32,000 nucleotides of DNA. Origin: Candidatus Jordarchaeales archaeon. GTDB lineage: Archaea > Asgardarchaeota > Jordiarchaeia > Jordiarchaeales > Freyrarchaeaceae. The notes beneath the pieces were generated by a model. The model saw nothing but the letters and a program-made list of their open reading frames with translations. It had not been told where the DNA came from and did not search any database. The stretch lies in the NCBI GenBank assembly GCA_038889235.1, contig JAWAHN010000001.1, forward strand, positions 404,499 to 436,498. Direction: 5' to 3'. The translations under genes and the position numbers were made by a program. This document shows, piece by piece, positions 12,697 to 15,751 of this stretch. Positions within the stretch are counted from its first letter, which is position 1, and the number at the start of each line of letters is the position of its first letter.

Positions 12697-13593
12697 CTAT
12701 GTTGGTGCTACCACTTTGTTTCTGAGGGTTCCTATTTTTTCTATAGTAGCTTCCATGACGTCTCCGGGCTTTAGCAGTTTTGGTGGTTTTGAGTAAACTC
12801 CTACTCCCGCAGGTGTTCCCGTGGCTATAACGTCTCCTGGTTCAAGCGTCATGTCCGCTGAAATGAACGATACCAGAAATGGTATTTTGAATATCATGTT
12901 TCCGGTGGAGCTGTCCTGTCTGGTTTCGCCGTTAACTTTCATCTGTATTCTCAAGTTGTGCGGGTCGGGGATCTCGTCTTTCAGTGCTAGGCACGGCCCC
13001 ATCGGGGCAAACGTGTCGAAGCTTTTCCCCCTAAACCACTGAACTCCTCTGAACTGAATGTCCCTTGCAGAGACATCGTTGAACACGGTGTAACCTGCGA
13101 TGTAGTCGTATGCGTCCTCCTCCGAGATGTCCTTTCCTTTCTTTCCTATTATAACCGCCAGTTCGACCTCGTAGTCAACCTGGCTTGAGACCTTTGGGTA
13201 GATTACTGGGTCCTCGTGTCCTACTACCGCAGTTGCGGGCTTAGAGAACAGTATGGGTTCCTTGGGAGGCTCGAGCCCAGCTTCTTCGGCGTGGTCGGAG
13301 TAGTTTAACCCGAGACATATTATTTTTCCCGGTCTGGGTACGGGGGCCAGCAATTTTACACCAAGGATGGAGTGTACCTCGCCTCGTATGACGCCATTCT
13401 CTAATGCTTCTGGAATGGAGGAAGCGGCCTCCCTAATCTTTTCGAGCAGGGATTCGCCCGCGGATAGAACAGATGTCATGTCCAACATTTTTCCAGGCTC
13501 ACCTAGAAGAGTATCCAAGCTTACCACTTTGTCCCCGACCAGCACACCCACCTTAGGAAGGCCACCGGCAACGAACGAAACAAGCTTCACCAA
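12697..13593 (-). CDS. Fumarylacetoacetate hydrolase family protein
   Basis: KIICLGLNYSDHAEE, PILFSKP, VDYEVELAVIIG, YTVFNDVSARD, GKSFDTFAPMGP and LEPGDVIATGTPAGVG. Confidence 0.95.
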   Translation of the reverse strand: MVKLVSFVAGGLPKVGVLVGDKVVSLDTLLGEPGKMLDMTSVLSAGESLLEKIREAASSIPEALENGVIRGEVHSILGVKLLAPVPRPGKIICLGLNYSDHAEEAGLEPPKEPILFSKPATAVVGHEDPVIYPKVSSQVDYEVELAVIIGKKGKDISEEDAYDYIAGYTVFNDVSARDIQFRGVQWFRGKSFDTFAPMGPCLALKDEIPDPHNLRIQMKVNGETRQDSSTGNMIFKIPFLVSFISADMTLEPGDVIATGTPAGVGVYSKPPKLLKPGDVMEATIEKIGTLRNKVVAPT

Positions 13594-13871
13594 GCGGGAA
13601 CCCCCTCCTTTTTAAATTACTGAGGGCGCTTGTAAACACTAAAAGTTGTCCAAAGAGTTGGGGACTTTTCCCTCTGACGGCAGACTTCCAAGGACTATGG
13701 GTATTTTAAATTTAGCGTAACAGCTTCAGGAGGTGTGTCGCAACTGGAAACCGTGCTGGATGCGTTCTCCTTTCCAGCTGCCAGTGAGCCCTGTGTGAAA
13801 ACATCGCAGCGCACGTTCAAGGTGCAAATTCAAAGTTTCTTTTCAACATATTCTAGTCCGGCGTGTGCATG

Positions 13872-13966
13872 AAAAAGCTGGTGTACTCTCACAGCGGCTT
13901 CCAAGGGGGGTAATATTTATATTGCCAAGTGGTTTTTAGATTGGTGTTAAAAAAGCTGGTGTCTCT
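13872..13966 (+). repeat. Direct repeat AAAAAGCTGGTGT at 13872 and 13950, flanking a TATA box
   Basis: Exact 13-mer twice, 78 nt apart, each followed by (A)CTCT; candidate operator. Confidence 0.55.
13911..13923 (+). promoter_or_regulatory. Putative TATA box of the speD-bpsA transcript
   Basis: TAATATTTATATT with TTTATA at 13916-13921; implies a TSS near 13945 and a long leader. Confidence 0.45.
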
Positions 13967-13973
13967 TTTCGGA

Positions 13974-14156
13974 AGGGGAGATGGTACTACGAGTCTGGCT
14001 GCCCAGGATTTCAGCGAACCGTGAAAAGGTGGCCGGCCTCTCGGCGGCTTGGGTAGCCATTAGTAGGCTTCTCCCCTCACTTTTAAAGCGTCCCCCTCTT
14101 TCTTCACCCCATCCGAAGTGTTCTCCTCTTACTTCTTTAAAAAAGACAGTAGGAGG
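13974..14156 (+). ncRNA. Candidate structured cis-regulatory leader RNA upstream of speD
   Basis: Nested stems 13974-13981/14070-14077 (8 bp), 13985-13989/14061-14065 (5 bp) and 13996-14007/14048-14059 (12 bp, 2 G-U), two small apical hairpins, and a hairpin 14125-14156 covering the GGAGG SD. Confidence 0.45.
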
Positions 14157-14163
14157 TGGTAGG

Positions 14164-14523
14164 ATGATTCCTAGGGGACACCACATAATAGGCGAAGTTT
14201 TCGCCGACCCGGAAGTATTGGACGACTTGGAGTTTATTAGGGAAGTTTTTCTGGAAGCTACGAAAGTTGCTGGGTTAAACGTCTTGGACGTCAAGTTCCA
14301 CAAGTTTGAGCCAGTGGGGGTCAGCGGCATTATTCTGATATCGGAGTCGCATTTGTCTATCCACACTTGGCCGGAGGACGGGTATGCGGCGATAGACATT
14401 TTCACTTGCGGTGACGTGGAAAAGTGTTGGGAAGCTTACCGCCATGTATTGTCTAGGTTGAAGGTGAAGAGGCACATAGAACTAGAGATAAAGAGGGGGT
14501 TAATAGAAGAGTGGGATGGTTGA
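14164..14523 (+). CDS. speD: S-adenosylmethionine decarboxylase proenzyme (pyruvoyl-dependent, class 1B)
   Basis: GHHIIGE, HKFEPVGVSGIILISESHLSIHTWPEDGYAAIDIFTCG with the E|S autocleavage site; GGAGGTGG SD before ATG 14164. An arginine-decarboxylase paralogue cannot be excluded from sequence, but the bpsA neighbour favours AdoMetDC. Confidence 0.9.
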   Translation: MIPRGHHIIGEVFADPEVLDDLEFIREVFLEATKVAGLNVLDVKFHKFEPVGVSGIILISESHLSIHTWPEDGYAAIDIFTCGDVEKCWEAYRHVLSRLKVKRHIELEIKRGLIEEWDG

Positions 14524-15751
14524 CTGCTCATTGAAAGTTGCTATGCTAAGTGCTTTACTGCATGAAAATGTGGGGAAGGTGGTTTGGTTGAAAGTGGATG
14601 AAGTGTTTCTGGAAAAGTTGGTGAGTACTTGTAGGTCCTTAGTCCCCCATGACCCGAACCTTACGGTTTACGAGGTTTTGAGGCTACTTAGGATGCTAGA
14701 AAGGGGGACCACTCTGGGTGGTATAGCGTGTAAGATGAAGGTTTTATCGGTTATGAGTGTCCTGGGATTCCTCTACTATGAAGGAATGCTCAGCGTAGAT
14801 GGGGAAAAGCTCACCGTGAAGCTTCCGTCCAAAGTAGAGTGGAACGTTAAGTCGTTTGTTGAGCTGGAGATTCGTGGGACTGTTTACGCGTTCCCGAGGG
14901 CTGACGCGCTCGAAGAAGCCCTCAGAATGAGGGATAAAGGGTTGATATACGAGTTCTCGCAGCTACCAATAAACTACGACAGCTTGATGAGAAAGTTTGC
15001 TTTCATGCAGTCATTCCAGGACGTTGACGGGAAAGATATCATATTCATAGGGGACGACGACTTCCTAAGCGTCACATGCAGTTTGCTTGGGAGGCCTAAG
15101 CGCGTCGTGGTCGTAGACTTAGACGAGAAGCTCCTAGAGAACATAAAGGAGATTTCTAAGAAGTACGGGCTGGAGATAGAAACTTACAAGCACAATCTAG
15201 TCCACCCCCTCCCGGAGGAGCTTCAGGGCGCCTTCGACACGTTCTGCACGGATTCACCTCACTGTCTTGGAGGGATACTCCTCTTCGTGAGCCGGGGGGT
15301 TTCAGCGCTTAAGAAAAACACCGAGACCGCCGGCTATTTTGTCTTCCAGACCGTTGACGAACCCCTCCTAATGGAGTTTGAAACAAGGCAGAAGCTCCTG
15401 AAGTTTATAATTAACGACATGAACGGGGTAATCCAAGGAATGCTTCCGGCATCCATAAAGTACACGACTCCAAAGAATGAGGAGGAGAAACTCATGGCCT
15501 TTTTCCTGGAAGCGATAAAGCAGCCAAACCTGAAGAAATACTACGAGCATGTTGAAAAGATCGTTAAACCCTCTTCAAGGTTTATAGAGTTCTACCCAGA
15601 GTTCTCCATGGAGGCAGCCATGATAACAAGGGTGGTTTTCAGGGACCCCAAGCCCCTGATAGTCGGAGAATACGACAAAGAGGCGGAGAAAAAGTATGGC
15701 CCAATATACTCGTGGGCTATAATTGAGCAATACGCTGCAGGAGAAAAGTAG
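14516..15751 (+). CDS. bpsA: Branched-chain polyamine synthase (N4-bis(aminopropyl)spermidine synthase, DUF43 family)
   Basis: GKDIIFIGDDDFLSV, VVDLDEKLL and FDTFCTDSP motifs; overlaps speD by 8 nt. Confidence 0.8.
   Translation: MVDCSLKVAMLSALLHENVGKVVWLKVDEVFLEKLVSTCRSLVPHDPNLTVYEVLRLLRMLERGTTLGGIACKMKVLSVMSVLGFLYYEGMLSVDGEKLTVKLPSKVEWNVKSFVELEIRGTVYAFPRADALEEALRMRDKGLIYEFSQLPINYDSLMRKFAFMQSFQDVDGKDIIFIGDDDFLSVTCSLLGRPKRVVVVDLDEKLLENIKEISKKYGLEIETYKHNLVHPLPEELQGAFDTFCTDSPHCLGGILLFVSRGVSALKKNTETAGYFVFQTVDEPLLMEFETRQKLLKFIINDMNGVIQGMLPASIKYTTPKNEEEKLMAFFLEAIKQPNLKKYYEHVEKIVKPSSRFIEFYPEFSMEAAMITRVVFRDPKPLIVGEYDKEAEKKYGPIYSWAIIEQYAAGEK

Follow-up and report, generated by a model that had tools for sequence, protein, structure and literature searches.

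In eukaryotes, S-adenosylmethionine (SAM) decarboxylase mRNAs are controlled by upstream open reading frames (uORFs), of which the mammalian MAGDIS frame and a small plant uORF (PF08132) of about 50 codons are examples. In bacteria, the leader frame speFL, located upstream of speF, combines a sequence-specific arrest peptide with Rho-dependent termination. To our knowledge, little has been established about translational control in archaea beyond Shine-Dalgarno (SD)-led and leaderless initiation. Structured RNAs have also been described at this step of polyamine metabolism. The fungal SDC motif is a hairpin in the leader of SAM decarboxylase that represses translation and shows no polyamine binding in vitro (Li and Breaker 2017, PMC5640933), and the bacterial spermidine riboswitch, a SAM-I variant located upstream of speD, speE or speB, turns polyamine synthesis off (Salvail et al. 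2023, PMC10853860). Ribosome profiling of Haloferax detected small ORFs in 5' UTRs that are 'reminiscent of uORFs', with mechanisms still uncharacterised (PMC10117724). Our literature search found no paper on speD leaders or uORFs in Asgard archaea.

Here we analyse the speD leader of a Candidatus Jordarchaeales archaeon within a 32,000-nt stretch of DNA, referred to as the window, whose positions are used throughout. A preliminary description of this DNA, made from the letters alone, had proposed a riboswitch-like structured leader in front of a speD-bpsA polyamine operon.

Results

Promoter, leader and genes of the speD-bpsA locus

The promoter, the leader and the two genes lie on the same strand:

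13905 to 13923, + strand: promoter, made up of a G-run and then the TATA box AATATTTATAT (13912-13922), the latter being invariant in five f1 genomes
13945 to 14163, + strand: speD 5' leader of about 215 nt, from a predicted transcription start site (TSS) and library contig X4
14152 to 14166, + strand: speD SD sequence GGAGGUGG (14152-14159) and start codon (14164-14166), with GG.GGUGG and the AUG conserved in all relatives
14164 to 14523, + strand: speD, pyruvoyl SAM decarboxylase, 119 aa (PF02675, AdoMet_dc, E 3e-34)
14516 to 15751, + strand: bpsA-like gene (branched-chain polyamine synthase), start uncertain (PF01861, E 8e-41)

In the 119-aa SpeD, the Pfam AdoMet_dc match begins at residue 7 and is complete. 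Orthologues in the family are 76-96% identical to it, and a protein-anchored look-up identified L113 as the closest relative, with a SpeD 96% identical. The longest bpsA ORF begins at ATG 14516, overlaps the speD stop (ATGGTTGA) and would encode 411 aa, against 377-387 aa in relatives; the bpsA gene calls in relatives L108-L121 start 66-109 nt past the end of the called speD. In this window and in the family f1 bpsA comes directly after speD, whereas L105 and L106, of an f2-like lineage, have the order speD-speE-bpsA, with a spermidine synthase gene between. The upstream neighbour, on the opposite strand, is a FAA-hydrolase gene.

The TATA box has a ATATTTAT core that is also present in f2-type leaders. 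Transcription is predicted to start at about 13945-13950, some 25-30 nt past the TATA box. The leader length of about 220 nt given in the preliminary description agrees with the value of about 215 nt obtained here from the invariant TATA box and from contig X4. This contig comes from a metatranscriptome library (1317 nt, 97% identity, depth about 16); it starts at 13966, which is about 18 nt past the TSS that the TATA box predicts and 15 nt short of an AUG at 13981, and runs unbroken through the leader and speD towards bpsA. The start of X4 at 13966 argues against a TSS downstream of 14080, which the preliminary description had named as an observation that would count against it. DNA may be present in an RNA library, and a single contig can arise from overlapping transcripts and does not reveal where they end; X4 is thus consistent with, and not proof of, co-transcription of the leader with speD, which we regard as probable. 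About 3% of the raw RNA run X6 was scanned and yielded no read from this locus, nor did RNA contig set X7 contribute a match, and neither result bears on the question.

Two further features were noted around the promoter. An exact 13-nt direct repeat, AAAAAGCTGGTGT, brackets it, with copies at 13872-13884 and 13950-13962, 78 nt apart; both copies run into a pyrimidine stretch and then a G-run, and the second copy coincides with the predicted 5' end of the leader. The repeat may have arisen by a small duplication of the sequence with which the leader starts. In addition, between the TATA box and the leader, a near-identical DNA contig from a second hot-spring sample shows a single-base difference, G>A at 13944, close to the predicted TSS.

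A folded RNA domain in the speD leader

The leader contains a three-way junction with the following parts:

13974 to 14077, + strand: three-way-junction RNA domain, from the folding z of -3.2, the RNAalifold consensus, pair counts and covariance model R1
13974 to 13981 with 14070 to 14077, + strand: P1, the basal helix, which involves the invariant GGGGAGAUGG
13975 to 13984, + strand: invariant decamer GGGGAGAUGG, holding the upstream AUG (13981-13983) and forming the 5' strand of P1, unchanged in seven distinct leaders
13987 to 13990 with 14063 to 14066, + strand: P1b, CUAC/GUAG, kept in relatives
13996 to 14007 with 14048 to 14059, + strand: P2, 12 bp, backed by comparison
14009 to 14013 with 14022 to 14026, + strand: hairpin A, UUUCA/UGAAA, with the clearest double changes
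14032 to 14035 with 14042 to 14045, + strand: hairpin B, GC-rich, GCCG/CGGC here and CCCC/GGGG in other species

The + strand of 13970-14082 folds with a minimum free energy (MFE) of -52.7 kcal/mol, against a mean of -40.2 in 200 dinucleotide shuffles (z -3.2; one of the 200 was as good). In the same test the - strand was weaker (-43.3 kcal/mol, z -2.5), and the longer stretch 13960-14170 gave a z of -2.0. The nested stem proposed in the preliminary description is therefore upheld by the shuffles as well as by comparison, P1, CUAC/GUAG and the 12-bp P2 being retained in seven distinct relatives together with the GC hairpin (GCCG/CGGC). The small ACC/GGT hairpin that had been drawn beside it is absent in relatives and gives way to hairpin A.

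Across the seven distinct sequences, standard pairs fill 94.8% of the consensus pair cells, a figure that drops to 36-53% if the partner columns are shifted by 1-3 positions. Variation is concentrated in the loops and the junction, the helix strands being nearly unchanged, and both sides differ in only 2 of the 30 consensus pairs. The 5' strand of P1, GGGGAGAUGG, pairs with a UCUCCCC box that lies directly 3' of the stem in this window and about 125-155 nt downstream in sister species. Against shuffles, this long-range duplex reached a P of about 0.01 in G001-G003, 0.06 in G004 and 0.17 in this window.

The element is restricted to one family. When 41 related genomes were searched at the DNA level, 13904-14073 was recovered from all four other f1 genomes (71-75% identity) and from no other family, and in five of five Jordarchaeaceae (f1) genomes searched it is single copy and directly upstream of speD. 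A covariance model (R1), built from six distinct copies, matched only the five f1 genomes among 151 Asgard genomes, once each, with E from 1e-23 to 1e-28; a match in G107 (E 0.14) was set aside as probably due to chance. Scanning genome contigs for a 16-base pattern returned 75 matches, of which all but four Jordarchaeales records were chance matches in unrelated bacteria, and a pattern scan of metagenomes added one variant, L083, and no new lineage. A conserved, folded RNA is present in the speD leader.

The preliminary description had failed to match this RNA to SAM-I/II, TPP, cobalamin, fluoride, SRP, 5S or tRNA consensus, and no Rfam family matched it here. Rfam 15, which includes the SAM classes, TPP, fluoride and SRP, gave no match at gathering score over the whole window, and at E<=10 on 13500-14300 the sole match was a chance one, outside the element and on the opposite strand. 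A tRNA-type (BHB) intron was rejected: such introns have two 3-nt bulges on opposite strands with a 4-bp helix between, and here the internal loops face each other with 5 nt against 3 nt and no bulge-helix-bulge geometry; SpeD is also complete without splicing. A K-turn, C/D or H/ACA RNA was likewise dismissed, the characteristic boxes and geometry being absent.

These observations bear on two alternatives. The domain could be an independent small RNA gene, or an RNA bound by a protein such as L7Ae or a ribosomal protein, that happens to lie upstream of speD; its own strong promoter, stems as invariant as a protein-contact surface and, in this window, a short T4 run after the stem would all suit it. 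The relatives, however, lack a conserved T-run terminator, synteny with speD is strict, contig X4 runs from 13966 into speD without a break (although transcript ends are beyond what a contig can show) and no signature of a known RNA of this kind was recognised, by geometry or in Rfam, so that we hold this reading to be very improbable. The second alternative is a classical riboswitch, in which the junction would be an aptamer for SAM, decarboxylated SAM, MTA or a polyamine, ligand binding would rearrange the pairing of the leader and so mask or free the speD SD, and any open frame in the leader would be incidental. A stable, conserved and branched domain before a metabolic gene is what such a switch would look like, and a spermidine riboswitch is already known on speD, speE and speB in bacteria (PMC10853860). 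Against it are the empty Rfam search even at E<=10, the small number of covarying pairs (two) and the combination of variable loops and junction with invariant stems, which is the reverse of the usual aptamer pattern.

A reading frame through the leader

The preliminary description had overlooked that the entire leader, from ATG 13981, is an open frame in phase with speD:

13981 to 14163, + strand: upstream reading frame of 61 codons, stop-free and in phase with speD, so that ORF 13981-14523 spans 180 aa

The AUG lies inside the invariant GGGGAGAUGG, at the foot of the fold. GGGGAG directly adjoins it, and there is no properly spaced SD sequence. The frame from the upstream ATG has no stop before speD in any of the five species, while the other two frames have 3-7 stops. 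For the f1 leaders, dinucleotide shuffles gave a P for ORF length of 0.036-0.073 per leader, a statistic that is modest within f1 alone; some of the stop-free stretch also comes down with the conserved core.

The frame is in phase with speD in this species and in L113, where it would add 61-62 codons to speD; the phase is kept even though one leader has a 3-nt insertion relative to the other and about 24% of positions in their 3' part are substituted. Neither contig X2, a near-identical DNA contig from another sample, nor the 97%-identical strain X4 has an indel in the leader, which indicates that the in-phase state is not an assembly error. In G001-G003 the upstream frame is out of phase and stops 9 nt past the A of the speD start codon, and in G004 it stops 35 nt inside speD. 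Among species, therefore, its phase relative to speD takes the values 0, +1 and +2. Programmed frameshifting that would fuse the uORF to SpeD was discarded, since the shift needed differs by species in the same way and speD keeps its own SD and AUG.

Upstream ORFs across the order

In the sister family f2 and in a further Jordarchaeaceae lineage (L105, L106), the speD leaders are similarly long, follow the same ATATTTAT box and contain uORFs of 48-59 codons. These leaders are AT-rich and about 220 nt long in L095-L099 (G006-G010), L105 and L106. Over 13 leaders of the two families the upstream AUG is invariant and lies 63-71 nt past the start of the ATATTTAT core, that is, a conserved start codon at a fixed leader position as expected of a regulatory uORF. 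From this AUG the frame is open for 48-69 codons in the 13 leaders, and the other frames contain 3-10 stops. In the AT-rich f2-type leaders, with 4-10 stops in the other frames, the dinucleotide-shuffle P was 0.003-0.032 per leader. An open frame beyond chance is thus found with a P of 0.003-0.073 per leader, values that are not to be multiplied because the lineages are related, although several are independent in the variable 3' half.

Indels point in the same direction. The 3-nt insertion that separates this window from L113 has counterparts in a 3-nt difference between L105 and L106 and in differences by multiples of 3 among G001-G003, and L083 differs from L005 by a compensated +1/-1 pair 22 nt apart. 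The exception is 1 nt in G008-G010, within the last codons. Frame-keeping indels of this kind are, together with the open frame, a mark of regulatory uORFs.

The encoded peptide behaves differently from the frame. Between pairs, pN/pS of the uORF is 0.55-1.06, and a Pfam scan (hmmscan) of four uORF peptides, with matches considered up to E=1, found no family and no PF08132. The frame is therefore kept and the peptide is not; judged by these ratios the peptide appears to evolve almost neutrally, and what is conserved would be the act of translation more than the peptide. The same data weigh on the possibility that the product of the upstream frame is a small protein with a function of its own or, in this species, a true N-terminal SpeD domain. 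Such a role would account for a conserved open frame and for the in-frame fusion kept in both this window and L113, but it fits poorly with the pN/pS values, the empty Pfam scan, the changing phase to speD among species and an AdoMet_dc match that is complete in the 119-aa form, and we consider it hardly credible.

Two further leads were examined in this context and set aside. A pentapeptide, NISVF, shared by the uORF of G004 and that of f2 is not homologous, as it occupies residues 9-13 in one and 30-34 in the other, counted from equivalent AUGs, and the sole nucleotide resemblance, AUUAGUAGG versus AUUAGUGG, is read in a different frame. In other Asgard families, a search for in-frame N-terminal extensions of speD gave long open frames that were mostly C-terminal or short and followed no pattern.

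Relative to speD, the uORF ends in frame, at +9, at +35, at -8 or at -40 to -50, and this variation argues against one termination-based mechanism. In L105, L106 and G007 the uORF stop, UAA, lies within the speD SD (GGAGUGUAA or GGGGUGUAA), 8 nt before the speD AUG. In L101 (G014), of another Asgard family, a single sequence has an ORF of 94 codons whose start precedes speD by 232 nt and which, in another frame, extends 50 nt into the gene; a second SD-led AUG, in the frame of this ORF, lies about 38 nt before speD.

RNAalifold found no consensus structure in six f2-type leaders. Since these leaders have the uORF and no consensus fold, the order-wide feature is the uORF, and the three-way junction is an addition of f1. 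For a riboswitch with an incidental open frame, both a sister family that carries the uORF without the fold and a frame that is open beyond chance are difficult to accommodate.

The pyrimidine tract and the speD initiation site

Between the folded domain and speD lies the part of the leader in which the preliminary description had placed the switching elements:

14067 to 14135, + strand: pyrimidine-rich tract with UCUCCCC-type boxes, 78% C+U over 69 nt, fast-evolving
14125 to 14132 with 14149 to 14156, + strand: predicted SD-occluding hairpin CCUCUUAC/GUAGGAGG (CCTCTTAC/GTAGGAGG), from the MFE fold, z -2.6

The pyrimidine tract noted in the preliminary description is extreme, its composition falling in the top 0.016% of 69-nt windows in this 32,000-nt window. 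It is also the fastest-evolving part of the leader. Strain X4 carries 2 substitutions in the 103-nt core, 8 at 14078-14163 and 3 within the initial 237 nt of speD, so that 8 of the 10 substitutions in its leader fall in the 14078-14163 segment.

Pairing of the SD is a different matter. The hairpin CCTCTTAC/GTAGGAGG is present in the MFE fold, and the predictions leave the SD largely paired in all relatives at both 37 C and 70 C, with the tract as its partner in each predicted fold. However, when the tract between the core and the SD was subjected to dinucleotide-preserving shuffles, the probability of an unpaired SD lay within the shuffle distribution for all 7 leaders at 37 and 70 C (fraction of shuffles at or below the observed value, 0.03-0.69), and the partner of the SD differs from species to species. 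The hairpin thus stands as a predicted fold, and the occlusion attributed to it is no stronger than in shuffled tracts. The SD/AUG pairing beyond composition that a thermometer or an SD-sequestering element would have was found in none of the 7 leaders; what sets the tract apart is composition. The second pairing proposed for this region, CATCC with GGATG over the start codon, had to be abandoned: in strain X4 CAUCC (14110-14114) has become CGCUC through changes at 14111-14113 and the speD start is unchanged, so that the pairing is lost in a 97%-identical strain without a compensating change.

These controls bear on the riboswitch once more. GGGGAGA does have alternative partners, in a proximal or a distal UCUCCCC box, and the box could also pair with the SD, which speaks for it; SD occlusion that does not exceed the shuffles speaks against it. 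With the evidence from the fold and from the sister family, we regard a classical riboswitch as unlikely. An element acting as an RNA thermometer only, in which P1, the SD pairing or both would melt and SpeD and BpsA rise with neither ligand nor upstream translation involved, faces the same difficulty. The organism comes from hot springs, branched polyamines are linked to temperature in thermophilic archaea, and the predicted unpaired probability of the upstream AUG and of the SD rises from 60 to 80 C. Yet the core is largely folded at 80 C in silico, the SD pairing is no better than in shuffles, and the conserved open frame and its frame-keeping indels would be left unexplained, which makes a thermometer alone quite improbable.

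Discussion

Our results show that the speD leader of this archaeon holds two overlapping conserved features, an RNA fold and an open reading frame. A conserved fold within a conserved upstream frame makes control through uORF translation likelier than a classical riboswitch, and we consider it rather probable, from sequence comparison, that speD-bpsA is under uORF-coupled translational control gated by the fold. That speD keeps its own conserved SD and AUG counts against this reading, as do the lack of a suitably spaced SD before the upstream AUG and the varying end point of the upstream frame. The proposal of a riboswitch-like leader made in the preliminary description survives in part. A cis-acting, structured leader for translational control of speD-bpsA holds up, as the element is conserved, is always found upstream of speD and buries an initiation site. 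Its supposed switch parts, the SD hairpin and the CATCC pairing, failed their controls, and the pattern of conservation is unlike that of a typical aptamer. More generally, a fold that looks 'riboswitch-like' can be a coding leader, and caution is warranted where such folds are described.

The uORF-coupled control that we favour would proceed in five steps, the first three of which are borne out in part by the observations above. Transcription would start about 25-30 nt past the invariant TATA box. The first AUG of the transcript (13981) would then lie in GGGGAGAUGG, within the basal helix of the three-way junction of about 100 nt, and a ribosome starting there would read the whole leader, unwinding the domain and the tract that is otherwise paired with the speD SD. 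The last two steps we infer. On reaching the speD start, the ribosome would continue in frame in this species and produce SpeD with 61 additional residues, while in sister species it would stop 9-35 nt inside speD, a position that suits coupling or re-initiation. The output of SpeD would depend on how often the fold frees the upstream AUG.

If so, the output of SpeD and BpsA would track how accessible the upstream AUG is. P1 would be opened by heat and closed by polyamines, which stabilise helices, and the outcome would be more synthesis under hot conditions together with feedback by the product. The sign of the effect could be activating, through coupling, or repressive, through occlusion of the speD start as in eukaryotic uORFs. 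Candidate triggers are temperature, helix stabilisation by polyamines, a specific ligand and a protein. As a tentative extension, which we put forward with considerable doubt, a polyamine-responsive, translated uORF may control SAM decarboxylase in Jordarchaeales, acting either through stabilisation of a fold that hides the AUG or through aIF5A-dependent elongation; it would be a counterpart, probably convergent, of the uORF control known from animals, plants and fungi.

The arrangement is of interest for several reasons. A conserved frame and a conserved RNA domain overlap before the committed enzyme of polyamine aminopropyl supply, in a host that is among the closest prokaryotic relatives of eukaryotes, which regulate the same step via uORFs. 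In addition, nature offers two designs, the in-frame fusion of this species and the out-of-frame overlap of its sisters, and their side-by-side occurrence amounts to a ready-made comparison of how translation of an upstream frame sets initiation further downstream in archaea.

Comparison with the described systems shows likeness in arrangement more than in parts. With the eukaryotic SAM decarboxylase uORFs the locus shares the enzyme activity, an upstream frame in a long leader, a role in which translation matters more than a free product and, in the case of the plant uORF, a similar length. It differs from them in having no sequence similarity and a nearly neutral peptide, where MAGDIS and the plant peptide are sequence-specific; furthermore, the frame here overlaps or fuses with the main ORF, an SD precedes speD, and the enzyme is the small prokaryotic pyruvoyl SpeD. 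The fungal SDC motif is likewise a conserved structure in a SAM decarboxylase leader that occurs alongside uORFs, but it consists of one hairpin, about 11 bp long, and occurs in alternatively spliced eukaryotic mRNAs, whereas the element described here forms a three-way junction, about 100 nt long, which takes in the start of the uORF and the first 32 of its codons. Like the spermidine riboswitch, it is a structured leader before speD; that riboswitch, however, is a bacterial four-way-junction SAM-I fold with no uORF, and the window has no Rfam SAM match. Closest to speFL and to translational coupling in general are a leader ORF that runs through structured RNA, a downstream polyamine gene and an upstream stop at or near the downstream start, although the peptide is not conserved here and the host is archaeal. 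The Jordarchaeales element therefore shares the logic of the eukaryotic uORFs and of the fungal SDC motif, but neither sequence nor fold with them or with the spermidine riboswitch.
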